Virus record (IMG/VR): IMGVR_UViG_3300046557_000242
Span: 1,593-65,592 of that record
Reading direction: 5' to 3' (one strand)
DNA length: 64,000 nt
Source of the DNA: a virus
Lineage: Duplodnaviria; Caudoviricetes
The notes under the pieces are model-generated. The model was not told the DNA's origin and did not search any database. It saw nothing but the letters and a program-made list of their open reading frames with translations. Of the stretch, positions 3,418 to 55,037 are shown in pieces. A program made the position numbers and the translations under genes. Position 1 is the first letter of the stretch, and each line of letters opens with the position of its first letter.

Positions 3418-4878
3418 ACGGAGCAAACGATGTTCTACCTTGTCAGGTTGGACCGCGACGCCGACAGCAACCTCGTCGAGACGCCGCTGCCCGACTACGG
3501 CACCTTCGATAAGGGCGCCGACGCAGCCAAGGCCTCGAAGGCCGCCGCTGCACAGACTGGCGCCAAGGTTCAGTGCCGGCGCATCGCTCAGGCCGGAGAC
3601 TGGCGAGCCGCCATACAGAAGCGGCTCGAGTCCGGAGAATTGACCCGGCTTCCCAGCAAGTGGGACCTGGAGCCGATCGCCGATCACTTCGCCCATCTGT
3701 GGGCCAACGATCCCAGCAAGATCGCTTACATCGAGAGCGAAGACCACGGGATCATCCAGAAGCTGACGGCGACGACGCCGGGCCGCTACATCACCGCCTA
3801 TTACGAAGGCGGAGTCCAGGGCAGCACGGACATCACCGACGCCAAGCGTCGCACGCTGATCGCTGCGATCGACCCCAGCGGCGAGGTCTACTACGCCAGG
3901 ACGCCGGAGGAGATCGAGTACGTCTACAAGAATGGTCCCGACTCCTGCATGGACGGAGACCACCAGTTCAAAGGTCTGCCGATGTGGCCGACCGGGCCCT
4001 ATGGCGCTGGCGATCTGGCTGTCGCCTACACCAAGAACAGCCGGGGTCGTATCCAGTCGCGAGCCCTGTGCTGGCCTGAGAAGAAGGTTCACGGCCGATG
4101 CTATGGCGCCGTCGAGTCGATGCGAGCCACCTTGGCCGCGGAAGGCTTCACCGATCTGCGCGAAGGCACAGGCGGCAAGGTCAAACCGTTCATCGGCGCT
4201 CGTCTGCTCAAGGTCCCGCATGGCGACGCTTTCGTCATGCCCTACTTCGACGACATCAACGTCGCAGTTGATAGGGGCGACCACTTCGTCACGGTCGAGA
4301 ACCGCCAGGACACTGATCACTACGTGACCAGCTCATCGAGCGGCCTGTCTTACATCCAGGCCCTATGCCCCAAGGCGAAGGTCGTCGTGCAGGTCCGCGA
4401 GATGCGGTACGTGCATGGCGCTGACGAACTTTGGTCCTCGTCTGCGATCCAGCGCCTCGCCTTCACCTGTGATGGCAGCGGGAAGATCTGGCCCAAGACC
4501 GACACCGTCATCCTCGGCGATGGTCAGCGCTGGTCGCAGGAATACTTCGACGAGCACGGCGGCACCTGCTCCGTGAACGGGCAGCACTGGCCCAAGTCCG
4601 AGCTGATCGAGAAGAAGCCCGGCAAGTGGGTCCATCGCCTCAACGCTGACTACGAAGAGGTCGACCTGGAGCCGAAGGAGTCGCCGAAGAAGAAGCCGCG
4701 CAGCCGGTCGAAGAAGATCGTCGGCATCGACCCGGCTTCGGGGCCCGATCACACAGCCATCACGACCCTTCGCGGCAACACCGCGGACGGCTTCATCGTC
4801 GACGAGGTCCAGCTGCTCGATCCGAACCAGCCGACCGTGACCGACCTACTCCTCAATCGCCGCCGCCGGGCTGCCTAA
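3412..4878 (+). CDS. Conserved phage protein (DSCM...DLAVAY...RAL-W...YG core); true start probably 3430
   Basis: 488 aa ORF; degenerate Cys repeats in C-terminal half; ends in AA. Confidence 0.75.
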   Translation: MQTEQTMFYLVRLDRDADSNLVETPLPDYGTFDKGADAAKASKAAAAQTGAKVQCRRIAQAGDWRAAIQKRLESGELTRLPSKWDLEPIADHFAHLWANDPSKIAYIESEDHGIIQKLTATTPGRYITAYYEGGVQGSTDITDAKRRTLIAAIDPSGEVYYARTPEEIEYVYKNGPDSCMDGDHQFKGLPMWPTGPYGAGDLAVAYTKNSRGRIQSRALCWPEKKVHGRCYGAVESMRATLAAEGFTDLREGTGGKVKPFIGARLLKVPHGDAFVMPYFDDINVAVDRGDHFVTVENRQDTDHYVTSSSSGLSYIQALCPKAKVVVQVREMRYVHGADELWSSSAIQRLAFTCDGSGKIWPKTDTVILGDGQRWSQEYFDEHGGTCSVNGQHWPKSELIEKKPGKWVHRLNADYEEVDLEPKESPKKKPRSRSKKIVGIDPASGPDHTAITTLRGNTADGFIVDEVQLLDPNQPTVTDLLLNRRRRAA

Positions 4879-4887
4879 GGGATACCA

Positions 4888-5874
4888 ATGTCTGACATCG
4901 AAACCATCATCTCCATGCTCTCCCATCGGCGTCCGGCTGGTTCGGCCTCCGAGATGGCGTTCATCAAGAAGTTCATCATCCCGCTCGGCGCGAAGATGGA
5001 CAAGCACGGCAACTGGCGGCTGACGATCGGTGACAAGCCGACCATGCTGTGGTCGTCGCACACCGACAGCGTTCATTGCTCCGATGGCTATCAGAAGGTG
5101 GACTACGACGGGAAGTTCATCTCGCTGCCGGCTAACTCCAAGTCCAGCTGCCTCGGCGCTGATTGCGCTGCTGGCGTCTGGATCATGTCGGAGATGATCA
5201 AGGCCAAGGTGCCCGGCCTGTACATGTTCCACTTCGCGGAAGAGATCGGGTGCATCGGCTCTCACGCCATCGTCGACAAGGAGCCGGGTCTGCTCAAGGG
5301 CATTCAGGCTGCCGTCGCCTTCGATCGCCGCGGCACCGCGGAGGTCATCACCCATCAAGGCGTGCGGACAGCATCGGATGCGTTCGCCAGGTCGATGGCA
5401 TCGCAACTGCCGGCCCGGTTCAAACCGTCCGACAAGGGCATGCTGACAGACACCAAGCACTACCGCGGCCTGGTGCCGGAATGCACCAACCTGTCGGTCG
5501 GCTACTACAACGAGCACCGTCCGCACGAGGCGCTCGACACCCACCATCTGATCGAGCTGCGCAACCACATGGTCAACTTCGATCAGTCAAAGGTGGTGAT
5601 CGAACGCGACCCTTTAGTGCCGGATCGGAAGAAGCTGACCATGAAGGACATTGGCAAGTCTTCTTTCGGAGGCGTTCGCTACCGCCGCGAGGAGACCCTG
5701 CGTGATCTCGTCTGGCACCACGCCGACAAGGTCGCTGCGTTCCTGGAGAACAAGGGTGTCACCTTCGACCAGCTCCGCGATGCGATCTACGGCCCCCGTC
5801 AACCGGTGAAGGAGCAGCCCAGCCTCGGCAGCATCTTCGACGATGTCGACGATCTGTTCAAAGCCGCCTCCTGA
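4888..5874 (+). CDS. Zn-dependent M20/M28-family peptidase/amidohydrolase
   Basis: SHTDSVH, LGAD, AEEIGCIGS, AFDRRG, NLSVGYYNEH metal-binding motifs. Confidence 0.85.
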   Translation: MSDIETIISMLSHRRPAGSASEMAFIKKFIIPLGAKMDKHGNWRLTIGDKPTMLWSSHTDSVHCSDGYQKVDYDGKFISLPANSKSSCLGADCAAGVWIMSEMIKAKVPGLYMFHFAEEIGCIGSHAIVDKEPGLLKGIQAAVAFDRRGTAEVITHQGVRTASDAFARSMASQLPARFKPSDKGMLTDTKHYRGLVPECTNLSVGYYNEHRPHEALDTHHLIELRNHMVNFDQSKVVIERDPLVPDRKKLTMKDIGKSSFGGVRYRREETLRDLVWHHADKVAAFLENKGVTFDQLRDAIYGPRQPVKEQPSLGSIFDDVDDLFKAAS

Positions 5875-5910: not shown

Positions 5911-8046
5911 ATGAAGCTTGGAATGAAGGACCACGTCGACGTCGCAACCGGCGTGCAGGACGAGATCAAGATCGCTTTCGAGGCGAACAGCGTGGCGTTC
6001 TACGCGCAGATCTCCGGCCTCGCCAAGGACAAGATCCGCTACCCGATCCGGGAGCTGTCGACCAACGCCTGGGACGCCTCCCGCGGCGACTTCGAGGTTC
6101 ATCTGCCCACCCGGCTGAACCCCATATTCCGGGTTCGCGACTACGGCGATGGCATGAGCCACGAGCAGATGGTCAACGTCTACGCTCGCCTCTATGCCTC
6201 GACCAAGCGCTCCACCAACGACCAGGTCGGCGGCTGGGGCCTGGGTTCCAAGAGCCCGTTCGCCTACCTGATCGGCGATACCGGCGCCGGCTCCTACTTC
6301 GTGACGTCCTATCATGATGGCGTGATGCGCTCCTATGTGCTGTCGCTGGCCCAGGACGGCGCGCCGGTCATGCGCCTGATGGCCGAGACCGAGACCGAGG
6401 AGCGCAACGGCCTTGACGTGTCGTTCGCGGTCCGCCGCGAGGATATCGACGATTTCGTGGGCGGTGCTCGCGCCATCCTGTGGTCATTCCATCCTCGCCC
6501 GAAGATCTTCCCGAAGGATGCGGTCAGCTGGAAAGACCCGGTCGTCGAGTCCGAAGGCGAGAACTGGACCAAGTTCAAGTCCGGCACCGTGCCGTTCCAG
6601 GGTCCGCGGGTTCGAATGGGCTGCGTCATGTACCCCTTCGAGCTGCGCCAGATCGAGAACAGCGGCTTCCTCGACGTGAGCGATGAGGTCCTGTTCGACG
6701 CCCCGATCGGCTCGCTCAAGGTCACGCTGTCTCGCGAAGAACTGGCCTATGACGACACCACCCGAACGACGCTGAAGAACCTCGTGAAGCAATACGAGGA
6801 CACCTTCATCAGCCAGCTCCAGGCCAAGGTGGACACGGCCGAGACCCTCTTCGAAGCCGCTGATATCTTCGAGACCGAGACTGAGATGCTGGGTAGCAGC
6901 CGTCAGCAGAGCCTTCGGAACATCGTGCGCTGGAACGATCGTCTGATCCAGATGCACCTCAGCAAGGAGAACTGCAAGATGGACCAGCTCCAGGAGGGCT
7001 GGCAGCAGTTCGAGAAGTTCGAGGACTCGGTCGTTCGCACCAAGTGGGCCCATGACGCCAAGGTCGTGATCGAGCACAACCCGAGCTACTCGCTGAGCCG
7101 TTTCCACATGGCTGAGCTGGTCGGCAAGAAGGTGCTGTGGGTGCGCTGCAAGCGGTTGTTCCGCGATCAGGTGATCGCTGCTCTCGGCAATCCCGAGGTC
7201 ATCGATCTCGACGCCTACAAGGTCCCGCTCACCAAGCGTGTCAGCAAGACGATCCGCAAGCGCAAGACCTTGGTCGTCACCAACGGTGGTCGCCTCCAGC
7301 GCATCACTCAGGACGTCGACCTGGCCGAGGGTGGCCTGATGGTTGAAAGCAGCCCGGGATCGTACCGCCGCCGTCGCGGTGGCAACGACTGGTACCGACT
7401 CCACAGCACCATGACCGGGTCGATCGACTTCAGCTCCACCGAAAGCTTCACCATGTCTGCGGTGGAGTTCGGCTTGCTTGAAGTCGGCACGGTGATCTTG
7501 GTCAAGTCGAGCGATCAGGATGTTCCGGGCGACTGGAGCATGCTGGCCGACGACATGATCGACGACATCCGTAACCGGGTGAACGTCGCCGAGTTCACGG
7601 GTCTGCATAAGAAGTCGCTCCACAACCTGAACCACAACCTCCAGGAAATGGCGCGGATGCGGATCGATAAGGCTCCGGAGGACGTCACCGCGTTCCTCCG
7701 CGATCTGAAGACGCTCTATCGGCAGCTTGAGCGTAACTCGACCGCATCGACTGAAAGCGACAAGGCCTTCGCTGTGCTGAAGAAGCTCGGCGTCGAGATC
7801 AACAAGCCGGATGTCGCCTGCCCGATCAATGCGATCGACGTTCGCTACGCCGCCCTCTGTAACGAGTACATGCTGCTGAAGGGCATCATCGAAGCCTACG
7901 ACTACTCCCACCGCGGTCAGAACAAGGCAGAGAAGCTCATCCACTATTTCGAGCTTCTCTCCCGACCCGAAGTGGCCAACGACAACGTCGAAGAGGACTT
8001 CTCAGTTGAAGCTCTCTTCGACGAGCAATTGAACGAAGCGGCCTAA
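5911..8046 (+). CDS. rIIA: rIIA-like protein (N-terminal GHKL/HSP90-type ATPase)
   Basis: IRELSTNAWDA, RVRDYGDGM, STK...VGGWGLGSKSPFAY, LSREELAYD. Confidence 0.85.
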   Translation: MKLGMKDHVDVATGVQDEIKIAFEANSVAFYAQISGLAKDKIRYPIRELSTNAWDASRGDFEVHLPTRLNPIFRVRDYGDGMSHEQMVNVYARLYASTKRSTNDQVGGWGLGSKSPFAYLIGDTGAGSYFVTSYHDGVMRSYVLSLAQDGAPVMRLMAETETEERNGLDVSFAVRREDIDDFVGGARAILWSFHPRPKIFPKDAVSWKDPVVESEGENWTKFKSGTVPFQGPRVRMGCVMYPFELRQIENSGFLDVSDEVLFDAPIGSLKVTLSREELAYDDTTRTTLKNLVKQYEDTFISQLQAKVDTAETLFEAADIFETETEMLGSSRQQSLRNIVRWNDRLIQMHLSKENCKMDQLQEGWQQFEKFEDSVVRTKWAHDAKVVIEHNPSYSLSRFHMAELVGKKVLWVRCKRLFRDQVIAALGNPEVIDLDAYKVPLTKRVSKTIRKRKTLVVTNGGRLQRITQDVDLAEGGLMVESSPGSYRRRRGGNDWYRLHSTMTGSIDFSSTESFTMSAVEFGLLEVGTVILVKSSDQDVPGDWSMLADDMIDDIRNRVNVAEFTGLHKKSLHNLNHNLQEMARMRIDKAPEDVTAFLRDLKTLYRQLERNSTASTESDKAFAVLKKLGVEINKPDVACPINAIDVRYAALCNEYMLLKGIIEAYDYSHRGQNKAEKLIHYFELLSRPEVANDNVEEDFSVEALFDEQLNEAA

Positions 8047-12133: not shown

Positions 12134-13720
12134 ATGCAAGCTCCATCAATTTGGGTTCCATCCCCGCAGCAGGCGGCGTTCCAGCAGGAAGCCTGGAACG
12201 GCACTAGCTCTCTGGTGCTGATCGCCGTGGCCGGCGCCGGCAAAACCACCACCATCCTCAAGACGGTGGAGCGCATGCGCGGCTCCTCCATCATCCTGTC
12301 CTTCAACAAGAAGATTGCTGAGGAGATCAAAGGCAAGCTTCAGCAGGCCGGCATCGACTGGAAGAAGGCCGAGGCCGCGACCGTTCACTCGATCGGCTTC
12401 CGGAATTACCGCAAGGCCTTCCCCAAGGTCCGCACGGTCAAGGAGAAGGTCGCCAACATCACCGAAGGTTGGATCGAGTCCAACAAGATCGGCCCTGAAC
12501 TGGCGTTCCACTGCTCCGTCGTCTGCCAGCTCGTCTCGCTTGCCAAGCAGAGCGGCGTTGGGATCGATGGCTACGGCCACATCGACGACACCTCAATCTG
12601 GGAGGACATCGTCGAGCACTTCGATCTGTTCGACAGCGAGGAACTGGCGAAGAAGGCCGACTCGCTGATCGAACTCGCGATCGAGGTTCTGAAAGAGTCC
12701 AATTCTGAGCCGGAGATCATCGACTTCGACGACATGATTTACCTGCCCCTGATCTACAGGATCAGGTTCTTCCAATACGACAACGTCTGGATCGACGAGG
12801 CACAGGACACCAACACGGTGCGCCGGCTGCTGGCCAAGTCGCTGATGAAGCCCCGCGCTCGTCTGTTCGCGGTCGGCGATCCCCACCAAGCCATCTACGG
12901 CTTCACGGGCGCCGACAACGACAGCATCGAGATCATCAAGCAGGACTTCAACGCCAAAGAGATGCCGCTGACGGTCACCTACCGGTGCCCCAAGTCGGTG
13001 GTCAAGATGGCGCAGTCCTGGGTCAACCACATCCAGGCTCACGAGTCCTCCCCGGAGGGATCGGTCACGCTGGAAGGCTTCGAGCAGATGATGCTCAACC
13101 CGGCTCGGCTGGACGGCGACTCCGCCATCCTCTGCCGCAACACTCGGCCGCTGGTCACTGCGGCGTTCGCTCTGATCCGCGCCAAGATCCCCTGCAGGAT
13201 CGAAGGCCGGGACATCGGCGAGCAGCTGAAGAAGCTTGCCACCCGTTGGAAGTCCATCGCCAACATCTCCGCGCTCGAAGAAAAACTCGAAGAGTGGTTG
13301 GAGAAGGAGCGGGCGAAGTGGCTGCCGAAGAAGAAGATGGCCAAGGTCCAGGAGGCCGAAGACAAGGTCGAGACGCTCAAGGTCGTGATGGATGCCTGCC
13401 GTGAGGCCAAGCTCCACAGGATCACTGACGTCGTCGCCTACATCGACAACATCTTCGCCGACAACGTGACCGGCATCCTGACGCTATCGACCATCCATCG
13501 GTCGAAGGGCCGGGAGTGGAAACGGGTCTACTGGCTCGACCGGTTCAACACCTGCCCTTCGAAGTACGCTTCGATGGACTGGGAGTTGGAGCAAGAGAAG
13601 AACCTACAGTACGTCGCAGCCACCCGGTCCATGGGCGAGCTGATCGACCTGCTGCCGCCGATGCCGAAGCAGAAGGCAGTCAACGACAACCAGAAGCAGC
13701 TGAAGGAGAAGGCAGCTTGA
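12134..13720 (+). CDS. UvrD/Rep-family SF1 helicase
   Basis: AGAGKTT Walker A, IDEAQD, VGDPHQAIYGF, TYRC, STIHRSKGREW, YVAATR. Confidence 0.92.
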   Translation: MQAPSIWVPSPQQAAFQQEAWNGTSSLVLIAVAGAGKTTTILKTVERMRGSSIILSFNKKIAEEIKGKLQQAGIDWKKAEAATVHSIGFRNYRKAFPKVRTVKEKVANITEGWIESNKIGPELAFHCSVVCQLVSLAKQSGVGIDGYGHIDDTSIWEDIVEHFDLFDSEELAKKADSLIELAIEVLKESNSEPEIIDFDDMIYLPLIYRIRFFQYDNVWIDEAQDTNTVRRLLAKSLMKPRARLFAVGDPHQAIYGFTGADNDSIEIIKQDFNAKEMPLTVTYRCPKSVVKMAQSWVNHIQAHESSPEGSVTLEGFEQMMLNPARLDGDSAILCRNTRPLVTAAFALIRAKIPCRIEGRDIGEQLKKLATRWKSIANISALEEKLEEWLEKERAKWLPKKKMAKVQEAEDKVETLKVVMDACREAKLHRITDVVAYIDNIFADNVTGILTLSTIHRSKGREWKRVYWLDRFNTCPSKYASMDWELEQEKNLQYVAATRSMGELIDLLPPMPKQKAVNDNQKQLKEKAA

Positions 13721-14108: not shown

Positions 14109-14867
14109 ATGAACGGTTTCGTTCTTTATCGCGGCCCGTCCGAGGTGGACGGTGAGCCTATCGTCGTCATCGCAACCGGCCTTCTGACCGGCGGCAACAA
14201 CTCCAAAACCGGCAGCATGGTGCAGGTCTACATCCTGCGCTCCGACATGAGCCCGCTCACTGCAGTTCAAATCGGCGCTGACGTTTCCATCTGCGCCGGC
14301 TGCACCCACCGCGGCAAGGTCGTCACCGACCCGAAGACGGGCGAGCGCAAGAACGTCGGACGCTCCTGCTACGTCACCCTGTTCCAGGGCCCGCGCGTGG
14401 TCTGGGATGCGTTCTCCCGCGGCATCTATCCCGACATCCCGCTGGCCAAGGCGCGCAAGCTCCTGGCCCACCGCAAGGTCCGGCTGGGCGCGTACGGTGA
14501 TCCGGGTGCCGTGCCCTTCCACGTCTGGGAGCAGGCGCTCGATCTCGTGACCGAGCTGTCCGGCTACACCCACCTCTGGCGCCAGCATCCGACGCTGTCG
14601 GCATTTTGCATGGCCTCCTGCGACAGCGAGCAGGATCGCGAAGATGCCAAGGCTCTCGGCTTCCGCACCTTTCGTGTCCGCGGCAAGGACGATCCGAAGC
14701 TGATCGGCGAGGGCCACTGCCCTGCCTCCAAGGAGATGGGCAAGGCGACGCAGTGCGCTCAGTGCCTGCTCTGCGGCGGCTCCAGGTCACCCGCCAAGGC
14801 GGACATCACCATCATCGCTCACGGAGTCGGCGCGAAGAACTACGAACGCGCCAAGGAGGCAGCATGA
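14109..14867 (+). CDS. Cys-rich conserved phage protein (possible Fe-S/Zn enzyme)
   Basis: NSKTGSMVQ, CAGC..CYV, RLGAYGDP, GYTH, CPA..CAQCLLC, HG motifs. Confidence 0.7.
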   Translation: MNGFVLYRGPSEVDGEPIVVIATGLLTGGNNSKTGSMVQVYILRSDMSPLTAVQIGADVSICAGCTHRGKVVTDPKTGERKNVGRSCYVTLFQGPRVVWDAFSRGIYPDIPLAKARKLLAHRKVRLGAYGDPGAVPFHVWEQALDLVTELSGYTHLWRQHPTLSAFCMASCDSEQDREDAKALGFRTFRVRGKDDPKLIGEGHCPASKEMGKATQCAQCLLCGGSRSPAKADITIIAHGVGAKNYERAKEAA

Positions 14868-22323: not shown

Positions 22324-22683
22324 ATGTCGCCCAACAATTCCCTGACCGATCAGCAGATCGAAGAGGCCTTGGTGCAGTCTGGGATGCCGATCGAGCTGAT
22401 CGCATTCCTGACAGTGCTCGGAGGTCTCGGCGATGCTGCCGAGCTGTGTGACTGTCCGCCCGGCGTCTGCCTCGGTGAAGGTCCGGCTTCCGATCTCCTC
22501 GACGACGAGGAAGAGGACGACGATGACCTCGAAGTCGTGTTCGAACCGGACTTCGACTTCGAAGCGATCGACGTCCCCCAGGAAGACAAGATCGAGGCTG
22601 TCGCCCAGCTGGGCCGCATCATCGAGGGTCTGACCCTCCTGGTCGAGCGTCACTCCGCCCTCGTTGCGAGCCTGGTGACCTGA
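22324..22683 (+). CDS. Very acidic hypothetical protein
   Basis: DDEEEDDDD tract; GGAG RBS. Confidence 0.65.
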   Translation: MSPNNSLTDQQIEEALVQSGMPIELIAFLTVLGGLGDAAELCDCPPGVCLGEGPASDLLDDEEEDDDDLEVVFEPDFDFEAIDVPQEDKIEAVAQLGRIIEGLTLLVERHSALVASLVT

Positions 22684-23033
22684 TGAAGAGAACCGTCCTG
22701 GAAGTCGGACCGGGCGCTCTCTCTGAGTACTACGACTGGATCAAGGATGCCGCCAGCGGCGACGTCCTGGTCTACTGGCAGGGCGACCTCCAGTACGACC
22801 GCCAGATCACGGTACCCACGGACGATGTCCTCCGGGCCGCCGAGCGCACCCGCATCCAAGCGCTCAACTTCGTCGCTGATCGTGTCCTCAAGGACAGCAA
22901 GGGTGGACTGCTTCACCTGACGCAGCTCCGGATCGGAACGAACCTCTTCGAATACCGCGCAACCCGCCGCCGGGCCTCCGGCGGCCAACACACGGTCTCG
23001 GAAATCCGGAATGACAACCTCGTCTCTGCATGA
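22683..23033 (+). CDS. Hypothetical protein
   Basis: Coupled 116 aa ORF. Confidence 0.7.
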   Translation: MKRTVLEVGPGALSEYYDWIKDAASGDVLVYWQGDLQYDRQITVPTDDVLRAAERTRIQALNFVADRVLKDSKGGLLHLTQLRIGTNLFEYRATRRRASGGQHTVSEIRNDNLVSA

Positions 23034-23598
23034 GGATCGCACGATGACCCTCGGCTGGCTCGCCCATGGTGGCGAGCTGGCCTTGGCTCTCAAAGGCGAT
23101 CAATCGCGACACTCCGACGTCATCTGGCAGCTTCTCGTCGAGGCCGTAGAGGTCATCGACAAGACGCCAGACAGCGAACGGCGCTGGCTTACGTCCGGTC
23201 AGCGATCCGGTGGCTGGAACATGGTCGGCATGTCCCGAGCCGAGCTGGTCGAGATCGAGAAGATCAGACTGCTCTGCGCAATGAAACCCTTCGACGGGAA
23301 CACGAAGTATGCGCCGCAACGAGATGACACTGAACGAGCCCTCGGAGTCCTTGCATGGCTTCGTTGGTGCAACTCTGCGCGCCTACCGGAGCGACTTACG
23401 AAGGCAGCTATCGCGCTGGCTCGTGGCGGAGATCAAGAGATCGTTCACCAGCTCTATTGCCCGACGCGCAAACCGAACCGCCAGAACTTCCACGAGATCA
23501 GGACCCGGACAGTCGGCTTCATCCTGACCGGCCTTAAAGCCGACCTCGGCATCGTCGCTGGGGAGGGCATCACCTTCAAAGAGGTTCATCATGACTGA
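23011..23598 (+). CDS. Hypothetical protein, possible transcription regulator
   Basis: 195 aa ORF; start may be 23044. Confidence 0.65.
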   Translation: MTTSSLHEDRTMTLGWLAHGGELALALKGDQSRHSDVIWQLLVEAVEVIDKTPDSERRWLTSGQRSGGWNMVGMSRAELVEIEKIRLLCAMKPFDGNTKYAPQRDDTERALGVLAWLRWCNSARLPERLTKAAIALARGGDQEIVHQLYCPTRKPNRQNFHEIRTRTVGFILTGLKADLGIVAGEGITFKEVHHD

Positions 23599-25153: not shown

Positions 25154-25191
25154 GGACTTGCAAAATGAGGAAGCGAACTGGCCACATCGGT

Positions 25192-35162: not shown

Positions 35163-35394
35163 GCCGGTCCCCGTATTCAGCAAAGAGGCTCGCTCCTTCG
35201 ACATTGAGGGGGCGATCCGACGAGCTGCTGGTGAAGAAGATCGAGGCGCGTATGCGCGCTTCGTCCCATTAATCAAAGGTCAGCTGGGCAAGCACCCGTT
35301 CGACTGGAACGACCAGACGGGCCGTTGTCAAAAGGATGTGGTCCGCATGTTCGAGGATCTGGCTGACGAGTTCCGTTTTAAGGAGGCATCATGA
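35065..35394 (+). CDS. Conserved phage hypothetical protein
   Basis: P.RWTQ...ARD...GAI...WND..GR...V motif. Confidence 0.6.
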   Translation: MFSELEIVDRCLLLFKKPGRWTQKSCARDGRGKPVPVFSKEARSFDIEGAIRRAAGEEDRGAYARFVPLIKGQLGKHPFDWNDQTGRCQKDVVRMFEDLADEFRFKEAS

Positions 35395-35801
35395 CCGTAG
35401 CGAACGACAACTTTACAGAGGCTGACCTGATCGAACTGGAAAGATCGGTCAACGCCCTGGTGGCTATCTGCCACAAGATGAACAAGCACTGGTGGATCGA
35501 CCCGATCACCGGAGAAGACCTTCGCCAGAAAGACCTGATCGTCCCCACCAAGCTGCTGCTGACGGTCAGCGAGATCTGCGAGGCGATGGAGGCCGACCGC
35601 AAGGATCTGATGGACGACAAGCTGCCTCACCGCAAGGGACTCGAGGTCGAGCTTGCCGACGCCCTGATCCGGATCGGTGACCTGGGTGGAGCCCTGACGC
35701 TCAATCTCGGTGCCGCCGCCCGTGAGAAGTCTGCCTTCAACTTGGTTCGACCCGACCACAAGGCGGAGAACCGGGTCAAGAAGGGTGGAAAAAAGTACTG
35801 A
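35391..35801 (+). CDS. MazG/dimeric dUTPase-like nucleotide pyrophosphohydrolase
   Basis: SEICEAMEADRK...EVELADALIRI.D. Confidence 0.8.
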   Translation: MTVANDNFTEADLIELERSVNALVAICHKMNKHWWIDPITGEDLRQKDLIVPTKLLLTVSEICEAMEADRKDLMDDKLPHRKGLEVELADALIRIGDLGGALTLNLGAAAREKSAFNLVRPDHKAENRVKKGGKKY

Positions 35802-37920: not shown

Positions 37921-38130
37921 ATGTCATCGGAATTGTCAAAAACCATCGTGAAATTCCTCCCGCCGGAGGACGTCGGTGAAGATCAGTCCGGCTGGTGGAT
38001 TCTTCACATGGAACCGCGAGACGACGGCGACATGGGGCCGAACGGCGAAGGGTACAGCTGGGACGCCGTTGGCCCATTCGACACTGAAGATGAAGCAAAG
38101 CGCATCCTGAAGGAGAATGCAAGCGCATGA
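37921..38130 (+). CDS. Hypothetical protein
   Basis: GPFDTEDEA motif. Confidence 0.6.
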   Translation: MSSELSKTIVKFLPPEDVGEDQSGWWILHMEPRDDGDMGPNGEGYSWDAVGPFDTEDEAKRILKENASA

Positions 38131-39104
38131 CAATCTCTGCAACGAAAATTTTGCACAGCATTTCGCCCGAGCAAATCGAACTGAAAACGGTACTTGCACG
38201 TTATCCGCGCTTCATCCATGCGGAAGAGCTGACGCACCGCGTTCTCAGCTCGACGCCCGACATGATCATCGAGATCAACGATGGCCTGATGTACGACCGC
38301 AATCTGTCACGGAACGCTTCCAGCTCCCGTGCGATCCCCGTGCAGCGGTTGATCGACGACATCCTGCGCGACACGGCGATGCCGATCCACTGGGGCAAGA
38401 ACCAGAAGGGCATGCAGGCGGACATCGAGCTGACGGACTACATCAAGAACCCCTTTGCGAATGATAATGTGCTGCTTGGATCGCTGCTGTCTCCGCAGCA
38501 GATGTGGTGCGAGGCGCGCGATCATGCCATCGCATTCGCAAACGCCTACGACCAAGCTGGCTACCACAAGCAGGTCGTCAACCGTCTGTTGGAGCCCTTC
38601 TCCCACATCAACGTCCTGATCACGGCGACGGACTGGGACAACTTCTTCGAGCTGCGCGACCACAAGGATGCCCAGCCCGAGATCCAGGCACTTGCAGTCG
38701 CGATCAAGGAGGCGTTTGCAGACAGCGTGCCGCAGCAATTGCAGCCGGGCCAGTGGCATTTGCCTTACGTGACCGAACACGAGCAGGAGTGGCTGGAGCT
38801 GGAGACCCAGAAGAAAATCTCTGTCGCCCGCTGCGCTCGCACCTCCTACCTGACGCATGAGGGTAAGCACCCCCTGATTCAGCAGGACCTCCGCCTGTTC
38901 AACGACCTGGTAGGAGCCCGGCCGCTGCACGCATCGCCGGCTGAGCACCAGGCAACGCCTGACGTCTACATCAAGGGTCACATTGGCCCCTATGGCGAAT
39001 ACCGGGTCGGCCGCTGGCAGGACCAGAGCCTGCACGGCAACTTCCGCGGCTGGCAACAGAACCGCAAATCCATCGAACGACAAATCTACAAAGAGGCAGC
39101 ATGA
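38127..39104 (+). CDS. thyX: Flavin-dependent thymidylate synthase
   Basis: YPRFIHAE..THR, SRNASSSRAIP, HKQVVNRLLEPF, LR...AQPEI, HASPAEH. Confidence 0.9.
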   Translation: MTISATKILHSISPEQIELKTVLARYPRFIHAEELTHRVLSSTPDMIIEINDGLMYDRNLSRNASSSRAIPVQRLIDDILRDTAMPIHWGKNQKGMQADIELTDYIKNPFANDNVLLGSLLSPQQMWCEARDHAIAFANAYDQAGYHKQVVNRLLEPFSHINVLITATDWDNFFELRDHKDAQPEIQALAVAIKEAFADSVPQQLQPGQWHLPYVTEHEQEWLELETQKKISVARCARTSYLTHEGKHPLIQQDLRLFNDLVGARPLHASPAEHQATPDVYIKGHIGPYGEYRVGRWQDQSLHGNFRGWQQNRKSIERQIYKEAA

Positions 39105-39603: not shown

Positions 39604-39881
39604 GTCTGACCGAGCAGTTGGAAGCCGCGAAGGCTGAGGTCGCCCGGCTCGAACGGATCGCGGCGACCGCCACCTGCCGGGAGCTGGGCTGCGACATGCA
39701 GACGTTCGGCGGCTGCTGCGCCAGCTGCGACGACAGGAAGGACACCTGCATCTGTTCGGTGCCGGTCCATAAATGCACCCGCTGCGGCGACTGTGACTAT
39801 GGTGAGAACGAGGAAGCAGAGCGGATCAGGGCCGATTGCAAGCGGATCCGTGATCCGCTCTTTGAGACAGCCGATGCCTGA
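39600..39881 (+). CDS. Cys-rich hypothetical protein
   Basis: About 11 Cys, including CTRCGDCDYG. Confidence 0.65.
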   Translation: MSLTEQLEAAKAEVARLERIAATATCRELGCDMQTFGGCCASCDDRKDTCICSVPVHKCTRCGDCDYGENEEAERIRADCKRIRDPLFETADA

Positions 39882-40266
39882 GTACGCAAACGACAACGCG
39901 GTCCAGACCGACATCGGCGTGATCAGAAGAGACACGCCGCTGCGGCTGGAAGTTGCCGCTCGACTCGCCTTTCCGGACGGGTCTATGAAACTGGCGAGCC
40001 TACGTCGCGAGATCGCTCGCGGTCGGCTCACCTACGAAGTGATCGCGGGCAAGCACTACACCACGCTCGCCAACATCGAGGCTATGAGAGAGTTATGTCG
40101 CGTAACAGCAAAGGCCCCCGTCTCTACAAGCGACCTTCCCGACGCGAGGGCGGCAAATTCAAACCTGCGATGTGGGTCGTCCGAGATAAGCAAAAGGTCG
40201 TCTCCACAGGAATTGCTGCGGGAGCGGATGAGACTGCGCCGCCAATCGAGGCAGAGCAGTTCCTGA
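39874..40266 (+). CDS. Excisionase-like protein
   Basis: LRLEVAA...LRREIARGRL...IAGKHYTT; overlaps integrase start. Confidence 0.7.
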   Translation: MPEYANDNAVQTDIGVIRRDTPLRLEVAARLAFPDGSMKLASLRREIARGRLTYEVIAGKHYTTLANIEAMRELCRVTAKAPVSTSDLPDARAANSNLRCGSSEISKRSSPQELLRERMRLRRQSRQSSS

Positions 40267-42442: not shown

Positions 42443-42855
42443 GGGTAGCCTTCGTCTCATGCGTCAAGACCAAGGCGCAGCAATCTGATCTGGCTGAGCA
42501 CCTCTATATCTCTCCGTGGTTCCGGATGGCGGCAGAATACGCCCGGCGCAACTCAGACCGCTGGTTCATCCTGTCGGCGCTCCACGGCATGATCGAACCC
42601 CGCCATTTCATCGCTCCGTACGATGCGACGCTTAACGGGGCCAAGGTTGACGAACGATTCGACTGGTCTCTAAACGTCATTGATCAGATGGGCGCGTGGG
42701 ACCTGAAAGGAGAGCTGGCAGTGGTGCTGGCCGGCGAGAACTATCGCCGGTTTCTGATGGACGAACTCCACAGGCGCTTCCGCAAGGTGGTGGTGCCGAT
42801 GAAGGGGTTGATGATGGGCCAGCAGCTAAGCTGGATGAAAGGAATGATGACGTGA
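42439..42855 (+). CDS. DUF6884-like protein
   Basis: VSCVKTK...LY.S.WF...WFILSALHG...PYD.TL. Confidence 0.75.
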   Translation: MRVAFVSCVKTKAQQSDLAEHLYISPWFRMAAEYARRNSDRWFILSALHGMIEPRHFIAPYDATLNGAKVDERFDWSLNVIDQMGAWDLKGELAVVLAGENYRRFLMDELHRRFRKVVVPMKGLMMGQQLSWMKGMMT

Positions 42856-43205
42856 ACGACAACGATTTGATCGGCCGGATCGCCGGTATAGCGATAACCC
42901 AGTTCAACGGGGTGGGGTTCGCTCACGGGGTATACTTCAAGGTCACCTCAGTTGAAGGGCCTGGGCAACTGCATGTGGTCTGCACCAATCCAGGAATGAG
43001 CAAACTGACCCGCACCATGCCGGCGGAGCAGCTTTGGAGGCAGCTCAGCCCCGAAACCGTTCAGGGACAACTCGAACCGCTCCATGACGAGAAGCTGGAC
43101 TATGCGGCGAAGTGCTATCTCACGGAGCGGCAGGACGGGGAGAACGACGAACAGCTCAAGGCGAGGCTGACAGCCATCGGACTCGGTCCGAAGGGCATGA
43201 ACTGA
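42852..43205 (+). CDS. Hypothetical protein
   Basis: GTGA overlap. Confidence 0.55.
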   Translation: MNDNDLIGRIAGIAITQFNGVGFAHGVYFKVTSVEGPGQLHVVCTNPGMSKLTRTMPAEQLWRQLSPETVQGQLEPLHDEKLDYAAKCYLTERQDGENDEQLKARLTAIGLGPKGMN

Positions 43206-43583: not shown

Positions 43584-44237
43584 ATGCCCTCTCCTCGAGT
43601 CTACAACATCCACCACGGCGATGCGCCGGCAGACGCGGTCTACATCGGCCGCGGCTCGCCCTACGGCAACCGGTTCGTCATCGAGGCGCACGGCGACCGG
43701 GACCAGGTCTGCAATCTGTTCGACTGCGAGCAGCTGCCGGACATGGACGTCTCGTCGCTCGTCGGTCGGAACCTGAAATGCTACTGCGCGCCGCACCGCT
43801 GCCACGGCGATTCGATCCTACTGAAGGCGAACTTCCGCGTGGTCGTGTTCGGCGGTCGCAGCTATGCCGCCAAAGGCACCCTGTATCGCGGTCTCGACGC
43901 GCTCCATGCGCGTAGGCGGATTACATGCATCGTTGAGGGGGAAGCGTCAGGAGCTGACAGGCTGGCTCGCCAATGGGCTGAGGACCGTGGTGTCGAGTTC
44001 GATCCCTACCCGGCCGATTGGGGTAACATCGATCGGCCGGGTGCCGTCGTCAGAAGAAACAAGTATGGCAAGCTCTACGACGCGCTGGCCGGCCATATAC
44101 GCAATGAACAAATGTTACGCGAGGGTCGCCCTCAGTTCGCTGTCGCCTGTCCGGGCGGCACCGGTACTCAGGACATGACCGTCAGGTGTCTTCAGTTTGG
44201 CCTATCCCCAATGAGCCCTGAAGACATCGCAGCTTGA
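43584..44237 (+). CDS. DUF4326 + YspA/SLOG-like fusion protein
   Basis: VYIGRGSPYGN.F, LKCYCAPHRCHGD; VFGGR.Y, GEASGAD, AGHIRN..M, PGGTGT. Confidence 0.8.
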   Translation: MPSPRVYNIHHGDAPADAVYIGRGSPYGNRFVIEAHGDRDQVCNLFDCEQLPDMDVSSLVGRNLKCYCAPHRCHGDSILLKANFRVVVFGGRSYAAKGTLYRGLDALHARRRITCIVEGEASGADRLARQWAEDRGVEFDPYPADWGNIDRPGAVVRRNKYGKLYDALAGHIRNEQMLREGRPQFAVACPGGTGTQDMTVRCLQFGLSPMSPEDIAA

Positions 44238-47243: not shown

Positions 47244-47873
47244 ATGCTCATCAAGCCATTCCCCACCATGCCGGCCGCTGCCTTCAACCTCGCTCCGTTG
47301 AAGGAGAACCACTACGGGCTCGCGAAAATCGATCCGCCGTGGACGTTCAAGACCTACTCCGACGCCGGAAAGGGCAAGTCGGCGGAGCAGCACTACGACT
47401 GCATGACGCTCGAAGACATCTTCGATCTGGATGTCGAGCGCCTCGCTCACCGCGACGGCATGTGGGTTTGGCTCTACGCGACTGCGCCGATGTACGACGC
47501 CGCTCGCGAGTGCTTCAGACAGTGGAACGTCACCTACGTGACCCAGGGTGTGTGGGTGAAGATGGTGAAGGACATGAGCCGGCCGACCTTCGGCACCGGC
47601 TACGTGCTCCGCAACTGCCACGAGCCCTTCCTGATCGGGAAGATCGGCAAGCCCCGGATCCACTCCCGCAACATCCGCTCGGCGATCCTTGAGACGCGCC
47701 GCGAGCACTCCCGCAAGCCAGAGCAGGGCTACGTCGAGGCCGCAAAGATGGCTGGGCCATATCCGAAGGCCGATATCTTCGCCCGCGTGCAGCGACCTGG
47801 ATGGGACGCCTGGGGCAACGAGATCACGAAGTTCGACAACGACAACATCAAAACCGCGGAGATCGCAGCATGA
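47238..47873 (+). CDS. MT-A70-family adenine methyltransferase (start may be 47244)
   Basis: DPPW, GTGY..R...E, EHSRKP, FAR..RPGWDAWGNE. Confidence 0.9.
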   Translation: MQMLIKPFPTMPAAAFNLAPLKENHYGLAKIDPPWTFKTYSDAGKGKSAEQHYDCMTLEDIFDLDVERLAHRDGMWVWLYATAPMYDAARECFRQWNVTYVTQGVWVKMVKDMSRPTFGTGYVLRNCHEPFLIGKIGKPRIHSRNIRSAILETRREHSRKPEQGYVEAAKMAGPYPKADIFARVQRPGWDAWGNEITKFDNDNIKTAEIAA

Positions 47874-50358: not shown

Positions 50359-50733
50359 ATGCCAATTCGTTACCAGAAATTCATCAGGAGGCAGGACCTC
50401 CGCAACAACCGGGACACGTTCTACGTCTTCGGCGACAACATGCAGCGTGTCGGCTACGGCGGGCAGGCTCGAGAAATGCGTGGCGAGCCCAACGCGATCG
50501 GGGTCGTGACCAAGTGGGCGCCGAGCAACGACAACGTCGCCTTCTTCGATGACATGCCGGACTGCTTCGCCCAGGTCAGCTTCGATCTGGGACGTGTCCA
50601 GGGACTCCTGGACGCTGGCAAAACCATCGTGGTCCCGGAAGACGGGATCGGCACCGGCCTGGCGCAGTTGCCGCGCCGGGCTCCGAAGCTCGATGCCTTC
50701 ATCAAGGCCTGGTTCAAGGAGCGTGCAGCATGA
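50359..50733 (+). CDS. Conserved phage VFGDN-family protein
   Basis: YVFGDN...GGQA..MR.EPNAIG..TK...P.DGIGTGLA.L. Confidence 0.75.
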   Translation: MPIRYQKFIRRQDLRNNRDTFYVFGDNMQRVGYGGQAREMRGEPNAIGVVTKWAPSNDNVAFFDDMPDCFAQVSFDLGRVQGLLDAGKTIVVPEDGIGTGLAQLPRRAPKLDAFIKAWFKERAA

Positions 50734-50888
50734 AGTGGCTCTGCTGGATCATCGGACACTGGAATGTCTACGGGCCGTGGAGACGCGGTCAGCGCCACTG
50801 GCTGCGGGCGAACGCCTGCTGTCGCTGCGGGGAGCTGGACCACTGGCAAGTCTCCCGCACCAACTTCAAACCGTTGGATGTGTCATGA
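50730..50888 (+). CDS. Small Zn-ribbon protein
   Basis: LCWIIGHW...CCRCG; ATGA overlaps at both ends. Confidence 0.55.
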   Translation: MKWLCWIIGHWNVYGPWRRGQRHWLRANACCRCGELDHWQVSRTNFKPLDVS

Positions 50889-51136
50889 GCGGCTGGACCA
50901 GACACGACGATCGCAACGTCATGAGGGCTGAGGAGGTCAAGCACCGTTTCGGCAGGACGATGGGACGATGCCCCTTCTGCAAATCAGATTGGGTCGGACT
51001 CTACATGGGCCCGAACCCGCACGGCACCTGCCTCGAATGCGGCGCAGATGGCCCGCTGCCGAGGCGACAACGAACCGCGGACAACTATTACGAACGACAC
51101 TTCGCAGCTATCGATGGATGGAACTTAGCAGCATGA
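50885..51136 (+). CDS. Lar-family (restriction alleviation-like) Zn-ribbon protein
   Basis: CPFC...CLECGA.GP...AI..WN. Confidence 0.7.
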   Translation: MSGWTRHDDRNVMRAEEVKHRFGRTMGRCPFCKSDWVGLYMGPNPHGTCLECGADGPLPRRQRTADNYYERHFAAIDGWNLAA

Positions 51137-52578: not shown

Positions 52579-53043
52579 TCAGGCAGCGAGCAGCTGCCGC
52601 GTCAGATCGATGGCGTCCCACAGCGTGGTGACGCGGTAGCCGATGATGTGGTTGACCATCGCGTGCTCGTGCGGATTCGAGCCGTCATCTTCCATGGCCA
52701 CCACGATCGGGATGCCCTGAGAATCGGCCCAGGCCAGCTCAAGCACGGTGCCGATCGAGACCTTCGTGGCGCCCAGCAGGTTGACCAGCAGCACGTCGCA
52801 GCGCATCGCGTCCCAGCGGTCCCGGACCGTGAGGCCCTTTGGCGTTGACATCGGCGACTTCAGCCGCTCGGTCTCCTTTGCGGCGTCGGTGAACACACCG
52901 ATCGCCTTCATGTGCTCCTGCTCGCGCAGGGGGGAGAGCCCCTTGATCCCGAACTGCGAGAGTTCCGCTTTCGCGTACTCCCGCCAGTCGGTGGCGCCTT
53001 CGAAGTTCAGACCTGAGATCGGGCCGGCGAGATAGACGAGCAT
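52579..53043 (-). CDS. Nucleoside 2-deoxyribosyltransferase-family protein
   Basis: VYLAGPI, WR, RD...CD, SIGTVLELAWA. Confidence 0.85.
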   Translation of the reverse strand: MLVYLAGPISGLNFEGATDWREYAKAELSQFGIKGLSPLREQEHMKAIGVFTDAAKETERLKSPMSTPKGLTVRDRWDAMRCDVLLVNLLGATKVSIGTVLELAWADSQGIPIVVAMEDDGSNPHEHAMVNHIIGYRVTTLWDAIDLTRQLLAA

Positions 53044-53057
53044 TGAAGCCTCCTTAT

Positions 53058-53071: not shown

Positions 53072-53075
53072 GCGA

Positions 53076-55037
53076 TCAGGCAGCCAAAGACCGTGCGGGC
53101 ACCCGCACGACCCGGCGTCCCGGACGCCACTTGCCCTTCTGCATCGTGAGCAGCGAGCGCTTCCCGTCCGGATACTGAATGGTCACGGTGACCGCCCAGC
53201 CCGACAGGCCCTTGTTGTAGCCGTGGCGCAGGTTCATGACGCCGGAGACGTACACGCCCTCCATGATCTCGGGGCTGTGTTTGTCACCGATCGACATCTT
53301 GCGGCCGGCCTTGGCGAAGCCGTTCACGGTGCCACGAGCGCCGTTCGCGCCGCGGAAGCCGTGGTTGCCGACCTCGATGCCGTCGATCAGGTAGCTGTAT
53401 CCATCGACGCACCACTCCACCAAGCCACCCAGCTCGGGCCGCTTGAGGCGCACGGCGTGCTCCAGCAACGAGAACCGCGGCAGCGGCATGTCGTTGTCCA
53501 GCGCGTAGGAACGCTGCTCGACGTAGTTGAGGTAGGCATCCTCCAGCTTGAGTCCGTAGCGGACGTTCGTGCCGTCCATACGGTACCTGCCCTCGCGAGC
53601 GTACTTCTCCAGCGCCAGATCGTGGTTGCCCTCGGCTATGATCGCCTTGCGGTTCTCACGAGCCAGCAGCGACAGGAAGTCACCCACGCCCTCGACCTCG
53701 TTCTCCACGCTGTCACGGCCACGAATGGCCATCTCGTAGCTGTGGGCGTTGTCGTGGATGTGGTGGTGGTTCCTCGCCTCGTTGTCGAAGATGTCGTGCA
53801 GGATGATGTTCTCGGGATCGAGAACGTCCACCAAGCTGTTGCGGAGCTGCGCCTTTCCGCCACGCATGTCCCATCCGAAGATGGCCATGCAGTTGGTCTG
53901 GTCGATCTTGCGGACGTGGATGTCCGGCATGGTGACAGCCTTGACGCGATGGCCGACCGTGACCTCGGCGTTCGCCACGTAGGCGTCGAGGTCGTAGAAC
54001 GAGCCGTCGTCGTCGTTCGCCGTGATCTGCCGGCAGAAGATGTCGCCATCCTCGTCGAACTGAACCACGGTGGCGCCGATGATCTGGTGGAAGATCGACT
54101 TCACGCCCGCCTTGCGGGGGATGATCTTCGGTCGCGTGCAGGCGCCCGACGTCATGACCTGGTGGGCCTGGATCGTCGGATCGGTGGACGGGACGGACTT
54201 CAGCTGGCGCTTGGCGTGCGGAAACACGGCCCAGCGGCCCCGGCTGTACGTCACCAGGTCGGAGATCGGCTGCGACGCGGTCGGCAGCGTGTTCATCTCG
54301 CCGCAGAACACGAAGTTGTCGCCGATCTTCATCTGGCCAAAGCACAGGTGCTCAGCCAGCTCGGGGGCGTACTCGCGCGCCTGCGGGTCGTTCTCGGACC
54401 ACCACTGCGTCTCGTAGGTCCAGGGGCCGACGATGATCTCGGCGTCGATGTAGGCTGCATAGGCCTGCAGATTGACCCAGAACTCCTCATGGAGGAGAGC
54501 GTCATTCTGCGCGCCCGTGAAGATGAAGTTCCGGTTGCGGGAGTCCTTGATGGCGTCGACCTTCAGGGTGTCGACCATCCAGGTCCGCGGCCGGCCTTCC
54601 TTCTCCACGTAGCGACGGTGCTTCTGCGACCAGGTACGCAGCATCGGCGTGTCGACGATGACGGCATCCGGGTTGATGACGGGGTATTTCGATCGGGTGA
54701 TGAGTTCGGTAACCTCGGCCGAGAGCGTCTTCGCCCGGATCAGCGGGTCGACTTCTTCGGCGGACAGTTCTTCGCCACCTGAGGTGACGGTAGCCTTGGG
54801 CTCAGGCGGAACGTACAGCGACCAGTCGATCGCGAAGTTCTCTTTGCGCTTGCGCTTCAGCGCCTCTTCAGCGCGAACCCAGTTCGGATAGTTCAGTCCT
54901 TCGACGCGCTCCGCGGTTTTGGTCGCGGAGGCAATGCCTCCACGCGAGCCCTGCGGGTGATAGCCCTGCTTCAGCAGATCTTCGATGACCTGCTTTCTGC
55001 GAGCGCGTTCTTCGGTAGCGAGCGGTTGAAAAGTCAT
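53076..55037 (-). CDS. Large calcineurin-like metallophosphoesterase-domain protein
   Basis: PDIH, LHD.FD, GNHD, HG, HSP motifs; N-terminal T.AQN. Confidence 0.8.
   Translation of the reverse strand: MTFQPLATEERARRKQVIEDLLKQGYHPQGSRGGIASATKTAERVEGLNYPNWVRAEEALKRKRKENFAIDWSLYVPPEPKATVTSGGEELSAEEVDPLIRAKTLSAEVTELITRSKYPVINPDAVIVDTPMLRTWSQKHRRYVEKEGRPRTWMVDTLKVDAIKDSRNRNFIFTGAQNDALLHEEFWVNLQAYAAYIDAEIIVGPWTYETQWWSENDPQAREYAPELAEHLCFGQMKIGDNFVFCGEMNTLPTASQPISDLVTYSRGRWAVFPHAKRQLKSVPSTDPTIQAHQVMTSGACTRPKIIPRKAGVKSIFHQIIGATVVQFDEDGDIFCRQITANDDDGSFYDLDAYVANAEVTVGHRVKAVTMPDIHVRKIDQTNCMAIFGWDMRGGKAQLRNSLVDVLDPENIILHDIFDNEARNHHHIHDNAHSYEMAIRGRDSVENEVEGVGDFLSLLARENRKAIIAEGNHDLALEKYAREGRYRMDGTNVRYGLKLEDAYLNYVEQRSYALDNDMPLPRFSLLEHAVRLKRPELGGLVEWCVDGYSYLIDGIEVGNHGFRGANGARGTVNGFAKAGRKMSIGDKHSPEIMEGVYVSGVMNLRHGYNKGLSGWAVTVTIQYPDGKRSLLTMQKGKWRPGRRVVRVPARSLAA

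Follow-up and report, generated by a model that had tools for sequence, protein, structure and literature searches.

The question of whether a phage can encode, in its own genes, copies of the peptide tag that its host adds to proteins from transfer-messenger RNA (tmRNA; gene ssrA) is raised by a set of short protein tails in a 64,000-nucleotide stretch of phage DNA, referred to here as the window. The window makes up 64,000 bases of one linear virus record, 65,592 bases long (IMG/VR IMGVR_UViG_3300046557_000242; estimated completeness about 54%, G+C 61%). An earlier note on this DNA had proposed that tails with an ANDN motif and a terminal Ala-Ala-COOH (AA), carried by many of its proteins, mimic the Caulobacter tmRNA tag and use the adaptor SspB and the protease ClpXP as a proteolytic timer. 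Every tail quoted there was found in the sequence (Table 1). The comparative evidence favored copies of the two functional parts of the host tag, but not Caulobacter as the host. With belief and doubt in about equal measure, we propose from sequence comparison that the tails are genome-encoded ssrA-tag mimics that engage SspB/ClpXP as adaptor-dependent degrons.

By sequence, the window is about half of the genome of a temperate Bradyrhizobium myophage of the BDU-MI-1 lineage. It was syntenic with the Bradyrhizobium phage BDU-MI-1 (KY940711.1, 121 kb), the two sharing the order rIIA, UvrD-like helicase, primase/helicase, single-stranded DNA-binding protein (SSB), DnaQ-like protein, class II ribonucleotide reductase, integrase, MT-A70 methylase and deoxynucleoside monophosphate kinase, with the tail genes on the minus strand likewise in shared order. 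The rIIA-like protein (rIIA) was 65% identical to the BDU-MI-1 copy and 81% identical to those of three IMG/VR contigs. A scan of genome contigs for rIIA returned no relatives; a protein search did show many Bradyrhizobium prophage copies, with homologues in many genomes at 60-77% identity. The protein encoded from position 27396 (the 27396 protein) was matched in 3 of 201 sampled Bradyrhizobium genomes, and the regions around the two strong matches, G111 and G142, served as prophage relatives. All close relatives of this phage came from Bradyrhizobium. The lineage is taken here as the window contig, BDU-MI-1, the three IMG/VR contigs and the prophages in Bradyrhizobium genomes. Because of the rIIA identity and synteny with BDU-MI-1, and of the rIIA homologues throughout Bradyrhizobium genomes, the host was assigned to Bradyrhizobium; the earlier choice of Caulobacter was wrong, though the tag family is the same.

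The start of the alphaproteobacterial tag is said, from work of Chien and of Lessner in 2007, to be the part bound by the SspB adaptor. Genes of the alpha_tmRNA family were present in all five genomes searched, and the tags read by ARAGORN were ANDNYAPVAQAA in two Bradyrhizobium, ANDNFAPVAQAA in one Bradyrhizobium and ANDNYAPVAVAA in Microvirga. The Bradyrhizobium pattern, ANDN[YF]APVAQAA, has Q at position -3 and its first Asn at -11. The Caulobacter tag as quoted in the earlier note agreed with the one given in PMC9393093. Directly downstream of ssrA lay sspB (PF04386) in four of four genomes, three of Bradyrhizobium and one of Microvirga, linking the adaptor to the tag RNA, and clpX was found in three of three host genomes. 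A second, lower-scoring alpha_tmRNA occurred in two genomes (L092, G003:C32; L093, G004:C7), with the differing tags ANDNVALNEVRLAA and ANDNVDMGAVRLAA; five open reading frames (ORFs) flanking L092 had no Pfam match. In the window itself, ARAGORN and Rfam searches returned no tRNA, tmRNA or Rfam family, and the possibility of a phage tmRNA or captured ssrA piece was rejected on that ground. The tails lie in frame within phage genes that have ordinary stop codons and are not tags added co-translationally from tmRNA.

Genes were listed with a simple purpose-written caller (codon log-odds plus ribosome-binding-site score, greedy selection), which gave 104 in the window, or 105 with the slightly different training of the stop-context analysis. 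The window contained 11 copies of the tripeptide NDN where 1.7-2.0 were expected, a count reached in none of 300 within-protein shuffles. In an unbiased scan NDN ranked second among all tripeptides (p = 1.9e-6), behind HHH, which came from one His run; corrected for 8,000 tripeptides, p is estimated to be near 0.015. The four-residue form ANDN occurred four times against 0.18 expected. Five NDN copies fell within the last 22 residues of a protein (0.26 expected; positional binomial p = 0.009 given 11 NDN). The excess was replicated in BDU-MI-1 (9 copies, 3.2 expected), and the G111 and G142 prophage regions held seven and eight copies. A host sample of 800 kb, drawn from three genomes of Bradyrhizobium and one of Microvirga and with 693 genes called, had 4 NDN where 8.7 were expected and, in 220,202 residues, no ANDN where 1.1 were expected; NDN was found in the last 25 residues of none of the 693 host proteins. 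This scarcity, which rests on small numbers, might reflect avoidance of adaptor binding. By protein class, the window and BDU-MI-1 together had 20 NDN in non-structural and none in structural proteins.

In three proteins the motif also stood at, or one residue from, the place it has in the host tag. The first Asn was 12 residues from the C-terminus in the helicase and the 27396 protein and 11 in the MT-A70 methyltransferase, compared with 11 in the host tag, and the residue before NDN was A or V in rIIA, the helicase, the 27396 protein and the MazG-like protein. A separate, internal NDN was seen in SSB (21489-22169), at the border of the oligonucleotide-binding (OB) fold and the Gly-rich linker, and also in BDU-MI-1; the C-terminus of SSB is the acidic DDIPF, and this copy may be unrelated to the tail motif.

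Terminal AA was likewise in excess. Fifteen of the 104 window proteins ended in AA, compared with 0.97 expected from composition, and 33 ended in A; AA ends numbered 25 of 212 in BDU-MI-1 and 25 of 693 (3.6%) in the host sample, where 91 of 693 ended in A. All the AA stops listed in the earlier note were confirmed, the one at 51136 belonging to an ORF left uncalled. That note had also pointed to an artefact, and this proved real: G-GAG-GCN-GCA-TGA, a ribosome-binding site with an overlapping start, favors E-A-A, and 7 of the 15 AA ends were NTGA stop/start overlaps with GAG-GCN-GCN preceding the stop. Such an overlap is impossible, as had been stated, at the stops 4878, 8046, 26139, 52579 and 53076, and at 24223 too. 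In overlap-free stop contexts (TAA, TAG or C-TGA), AA ends made up 6 of 63 in the window, 17 of 127 in BDU-MI-1 and 13 of 440 in the host, a difference between the two phages (23/190) and the host with p = 1.8e-5. Counted against the host background as earlier suggested, AA remained enriched without overlap genes, and NDN was enriched as well. Within window and BDU-MI-1, AA ended 36 of 240 non-structural proteins versus 4 of 76 in the structural block (p = 0.029). Among other phages, AA ends numbered 25 of 302 in phiCbK and 21 of 210 in RcXuper, unrelated alphaproteobacterial phages with no NDN and one NDN, respectively, 3 of 120 in DshS-R5C (three NDN) and 7 of 149 in Citromicrobium RXM (five NDN). 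Given phiCbK and RcXuper, the terminal-AA excess is therefore not unique to the lineage and may be a wider phage habit; the NDN excess is lineage-specific.

Conservation of the two elements was examined in homologues. Five relatives were compared: the window, BDU-MI-1 and the three IMG/VR contigs. Their rIIA tails kept ANDN and the final AA, while the acidic stretch and the residue before AA differed and the Asn, Asp and Ala codons changed synonymously. The helicase tail of the same relatives kept NDN and AA, again with synonymous codon changes and with variable intervening residues. Among the best 120 rIIA homologues, all 23 of the closest (62-100% identity) carried NDN and AA. Of the first 78 matches listed, in which the tail comes after a conserved HYFELLxRP, 69 ended in AA and 74 in A; the 42 that followed, with at most 36% identity or partial cover, were mostly without the tail, AA being present in 9 and NDN in none. 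An alignment of 22 rIIA sequences had R685, P686, N690, D691, N692, A710 and A711 as its only invariant tail columns, the invariance of NDN being partly one of selection because the rows were picked for having it.

For the helicase, NDN was present in the last 30 residues of 35 of the 40 closest homologues (at least 64% identity) versus 1 of 80 more distant ones, most of which stop right after the core. Its first Asn stood at -12 in 18 homologues, -11 in nine, -13 in two and -10 in one, placing 30 of the 35 at 10-13 residues from the end (host tag, -11); in the remaining five it stood at -18 to -27, and four of these had two ANDN copies. All but one of the 40 C-termini ended in A (29 AA, 10 VA). 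In the four homologues with two copies of ANDN, these were 7-10 residues apart and the end was VA. The helicase start as called (GTG at 12215, 501 residues) is probably too late, relatives having 522-528 residues and the ORF being open from 12077.

In three further proteins the NDN was present in some relatives and not in others. The YqaJ-like exonuclease ended AANSNEKPADTEAA in BDU-MI-1, AANSNEKPAATEAA in G142 and AADNDNTEAAEAA in G111, with NDN in G111 and NSN elsewhere. The BDU-MI-1 orthologue of the 27396 protein ended AANDNDERRNEEEAA, with a GAT synonym, and those of G111 and G142 lacked NDN but ended EAA. For the MT-A70 methyltransferase, NDN was present in the window copy, and the BDU-MI-1 orthologue ended FNPAAAEAA without it. 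That NDN was gained repeatedly, each time equally far from a terminal AA, speaks for selection acting on the motif. The protein encoded from 22683 (the 22683 protein) had orthologues ending PNEQLVPA, QKPTLVPA and SNDDLILA; its NDN is thus not conserved.

Domain searches and structure predictions were consistent with appended tails. The Pfam domain UvrD_C stops at residue 476 of 501 in the helicase and the MT-A70 domain at residue 193 of 209 in the methyltransferase, both leaving the tail outside; the YqaJ domain spans residues 16-148 of the exonuclease. AlphaFold2 models built from homologue alignments for two proteins, the helicase and rIIA, had confident cores (mean predicted local distance difference test score, pLDDT, 87.8 and 75.9) and fell below 50 over helicase residues 486-501 and rIIA residues 687-711. 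As modelled, these two tails are probably disordered with exposed C-termini. A complex was also predicted for Bradyrhizobium SspB residues 1-120 (3-row alignment) with rIIA residues 676-711 (22-row alignment). It scored a weak 0.40, compared with 0.01 for the best of three controls; contacts agreed in at least 72% across runs, and the pLDDT of the partner was 48-50. Of 80 solved complexes, 58 attain the mark used for such scores, as do 2 of 110 mismatched pairs, but scores up to 0.60 took in only 7 of those 80 solved complexes and both mismatches.

Mimicry of the ssrA tag is the simplest account of these data, because the head, the AA-COOH and their spacing recur on unrelated tails, conservation is at the peptide level, and the tag of the host shows just these features while the sampled host genes are without the motif. 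The mimicry is well supported by the host-tag match, native spacing, synonymous conservation, repeated gain, restriction to non-structural proteins, low-confidence tails, and a host that carries sspB and clpX. From the observed features, enrichment, conservation, spacing and host machinery we infer binding, degradation and a biological purpose as follows. In this lineage several non-structural proteins would have acquired short tails, probably unstructured, with the [A/V]NDN head as the SspB-bound part and the terminal Ala-Ala-COOH, usually 11-12 residues on, as the ClpX recognition element. SspB would bind NDN and tether the protein to ClpX, which could then engage an otherwise weak xEAA or xKAA end, making degradation adaptor-dependent. 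The helicase, rIIA, the exonuclease, the methylase and others would be kept short-lived or scarce in lysogens, and at high expression the tagged proteins would also load the SspB/ClpXP queue. A timer, a dosage filter or a decoy may be the role of the tails. A fuller version, offered tentatively and with more doubt than belief, is a phage-programmed stability switch. Early enzymes would carry a hard-coded tag (head and end at native spacing) and other proteins the head alone at their N-termini; the tagged proteins would be cleared at low expression and persist once the adaptor was saturated in lytic growth, that saturation disabling host disposal of tmRNA-tagged products.

Compared with known systems, the tails resemble the host tag in their ANDN opening, AA-COOH and, for the helicase, 27396 protein and MT-A70, a first-Asn spacing of 11-12 versus 11; they differ in being gene-encoded rather than derived from trans-translation, and the YAPVAQ middle with its aromatic is not copied. 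In E. coli RseA, cleavage is needed to expose the degron, and the part that SspB binds is unlike the tag. RseA(1-108) is, like the tails, genome-encoded, delivered by SspB to ClpXP and ended by ..VAA (Table 1 of PMC8138137), whereas the phage tails copy the tag itself and do so on many proteins. Lambda O and MuA, which act in phage replication or transposition, have their levels set by host ClpXP, as listed in the same table (PMC8138137). Their signals differ (an N-terminal motif for lambda O, RRKKAI for MuA) and include no adaptor motif, and each is a single protein rather than part of a proteome-wide set of tails. In engineered ssrA variants the end that binds ClpX is weakened and the part that binds SspB is left intact. 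Such variants are described as inducible, adaptor-dependent degradation tags (PMC3064785; 10.1101/2023.11.08.566101); they are synthetic, and the phage tails would be their natural counterpart, if working so. Phage pf16 also touches the SspB pathway, as reported in PMC5587285, but it encodes an adaptor, whereas the lineage of the window, without SspB, encodes the presumed ligand of the adaptor.

Already known from these sources are single phage proteins degraded by ClpXP and natural SspB clients (PMC8138137), and engineered adaptor-dependent tags (PMC3064785); host-protease control of phage proteins is known for single regulators. A full-text literature search, assessed at the level of titles and abstract openings and covering few subscription journals, returned no report of phage proteins carrying copies of the host tag. 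If the present reading is true, the tails, whether degrons or decoys, would be natural, tunable, adaptor-dependent tags, and would give a new view of temperate phages limiting toxic early enzymes or hijacking proteolytic capacity. A host-tag head with AA-COOH at tag spacing would then be a simple sequence signature with which to predict, in metagenomes, the host of a phage and which of its proteins are unstable.

Several observations weigh against SspB/ClpXP-directed degradation. All gene calls came from our own simple caller. Within NTGA overlaps, the AA rate of the host (8/83) was not clearly lower than that of the window (6/36) or BDU-MI-1 (11/100). AA ends need not imply SspB, because phiCbK and RcXuper have the AA excess without an NDN excess, and some structural proteins of BDU-MI-1 end in AA, an annotated capsid protein included. 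Three NDN copies are N-terminal (the MazG-like protein, ORF 39874 and ORF 42852) and misfit a simple C-terminal degron. The aromatic residue (Y or F) after ANDN is absent from all C-terminal tails, which have V, Q, D, I or L instead; ANDNF with the aromatic included is found only in the N-terminal MazG copy. Two proteins depart from the tag-like spacing: rIIA, whose NDN lies 15-25 residues before the C-terminus, and the 22683 protein, with 7. Residue -3 is mostly E, Q or K: ten of the 15 window AA ends have E, K, R or D there, and 55 of the 69 rIIA homologues that end in AA have E or Q. The tails of rIIA homologues are strongly acidic, their last 20 residues having a mean net charge of about -8. 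An E. coli screen found terminal Ala-Ala to be necessary, not sufficient, with weak direct ClpX degrons where the residues upstream were acidic or polar (PMC10862746); many window tails are acidic or polar before AA and would be weak by that measure. Strong E. coli degrons have non-polar or neutral residues in that place. The modelled score of the SspB/rIIA-tail complex is weak, and so is the support it lends; with SspB structures already solved from Caulobacter (2QAS, 2QAZ) and Agrobacterium (2NYS), the score may be memory of a similar complex.

Some of these observations would fit tails that are short linear motifs for another partner, for instance a membrane protein in the case of rIIA, or a phage protein that acts in replication or recombination, their likeness to ssrA being coincidental. 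We consider this unlikely, though not far-fetched. The long acidic rIIA tail is of a type often used in protein-protein contacts, most NDN-tailed proteins are enzymes of DNA metabolism, which could meet at a common hub, and the missing aromatic and weak complex prediction are as this explanation would have them. The coincidence would, however, have to span a four-residue motif, AA-COOH and a spacing of 11-12 on unrelated proteins, in a host whose sampled genes are without ANDN, and an SspB-like protein was sought in the window and BDU-MI-1 and not found.

A rather unlikely alternative is that the tails are decoys and not degrons, abundant early ANDN proteins occupying SspB and queuing at ClpXP with their own turnover incidental. 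The purpose would be to blunt the tmRNA-linked quality control of the host or to shield other phage proteins. The N-terminal (A)NDNF of the MazG-like protein, kept in 27 of its 36 closest homologues versus 1 of 84 more distant ones although its ..GGKKY end is not of the ClpX type, favors a decoy, and tandem ANDN in four helicase homologues fits a dimeric adaptor. With acidic residues ahead of AA, direct engagement by ClpX is expected to be poor (PMC10862746), and phage interference with the pathway has a precedent in the SspB homologue encoded by pf16 (PMC5587285). A pure SspB decoy would need neither the tag-matching spacing nor the AA end, yet AA was conserved at least as well as NDN (rIIA, 69 of the 78 listed; helicase, 29 of 40).

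It is improbable that the tails are a by-product, with AA arising from high GC, ribosome-binding-site/start overlaps and a compact genome, and NDN being a chance or low-complexity feature noticed post hoc. The seven overlaps among 15 AA ends, the frequency of AA in host overlaps and the 8-10% AA ends of two unrelated phages could be so explained. The excess persisted without overlaps, however, and AA codons changed synonymously while the residues stayed. Nor would a by-product make NDN the second of all tripeptides, position-biased and replicated in BDU-MI-1 and both prophage regions, or preserve it in 35 of the 40 closest helicase homologues and in all 23 of the closest for rIIA.

The nucleotide sequence beneath the motif was considered as well. 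The 9-mer AACGACAAC occurred in 10 copies on the plus strand and none on the minus strand, where a rough estimate gave about 0.3 per strand, and in 0, 2, 5 and 1 copies in four other phages. All 10 copies read N-D-N, with none in another frame or intergenic, and conserved NDN sites had synonymous variants (AAT, GAT). The host ssrA gene also encodes NDN as AACGACAAC, and no nucleotide identity was found beyond a 9-12-mer, either between tails or to host ssrA, for which reason an origin of the tails by recombination with ssrA was rejected. The exact 9-mer was used by 32 of 40 NDN in six related genomes, versus about 50% from codon use, the orthologues among them being non-independent; there may be a small nucleotide-level contribution to NDN codon use. 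A strand-specific protein-binding, Chi-like or translation site with the peptide incidental would account for the strand bias, the rarity in other phages, the 32 exact uses and the four copies 32-38 nucleotides ahead of the next start codon, but is very improbable given the uniform N-D-N frame, the synonymous variants and the lack of similarity past the 9-mer. Tail length together with gene overlap accounts for the fixed distance of the 9-mer from the next start.

Table 1. Window features with an NDN motif, a terminal AA or both (nt, nucleotide positions in the window).
Feature	Position	Strand	Tail, motif and context
rIIA-like gene	5911..8046	+	ends VANDNVEEDFSVEALFDEQLNEAA; tail residues 687-711, nt 7969-8043
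rIIA tail elements	ANDN 7975-7986; terminal AA 8038-8043	+	ANDN, acidic stretch, terminal AA
UvrD-like helicase	12215..13720	+	ends AVNDNQKQLKEKAA; tail nt 13670-13717, KQKAVNDNQKQLKEKAA
116-residue protein	22683..23033	+	ends RNDNLVSA; NDN at 23010-23018
YqaJ-like exonuclease	25165..26139	+	tail nt 26098-26136, ANSNDKPAESEAA; TAA stop, next gene 12 nt away
170-residue protein, family not assigned	27396..27908	+	tail nt 27864-27905, AANDNDERSSQEVA
MT-A70 methyltransferase	47244..47873	+	tail nt 47835-47870, DNDNIKTAEIAA
MazG-like nucleoside triphosphate (NTP) pyrophosphatase	35391..35801	+	starts MTVANDNF; ANDNF at 35400-35414; C-terminus ..GGKKY
Candidate ORF, possible excisionase	39874..40266	+	starts MPEYANDNA; overlaps integrase start 40095
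ORF with GTG start overlapping upstream stop	42852..43205	+	begins (M)NDND; caller chose later start 42996
482-residue protein	3430..4878	+	ends RRRRAA; TAA stop, 9-nt gap to next gene
130-residue protein	1479..1871	+	ends QEAA; ATGA overlap with next gene
252-residue protein	14109..14867	+	ends KEAA; ATGA overlap
210-residue protein	23591..24223	+	ends RDAA; TAG stop, 234-nt gap
148-residue protein	27908..28354	+	ends REAA; GTGA overlap
ThyX-like protein	38127..39104	+	ends KEAA; ATGA overlap
217-residue protein, DUF4326 and YAcAr domains	43584..44237	+	ends DIAA
102-residue ORF, low coding score	44802..45110	-	ends RAAA
DUF7831 protein	50359..50733	+	ends ERAA
Probable 83-residue zinc-ribbon-like gene	50885..51136	+	ends WNLAA; ATGA overlap with gene starting 51133
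Nucleoside 2-deoxyribosyltransferase-like protein	52579..53043	-	ends QLLAA; GCC TGA, 33-nt gap
653-residue protein, BDU-MI-1 annotation 'putative A1 protein'	53076..55037	-	ends RSLAA; GCC TGA, 32-nt gap

Two of the N-terminal carriers had been named in the earlier note. Homologues of the MazG-like protein are called NTP pyrophosphatase by JGI; Pfam gives the protein no name. The candidate excisionase ORF at 39874, passed over by the gene caller, had no match in a Pfam search, and GC content by codon position (GC3) over 39874-40094 was coding-like.

Endings were also compared in orthologues of several remaining AA proteins. Those of the 3430-4878 protein ended RRVA, RRVA and RRRRRAAA, and the G142 orthologue of the 23591-24223 protein ended IRDAA. 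The ThyX-like protein ended AEAA in BDU-MI-1 and ARAA in G142, and the BDU-MI-1 orthologue of the 43584-44237 protein ended PKVW. No gene was called in the roughly 400 nucleotides at 50734-51132, which probably hold the 50885-51136 gene; its BDU-MI-1 counterpart (47539-47787) ends DKWNLAA. The BDU-MI-1 orthologue of the 52579-53043 protein had the same ending as the window copy.

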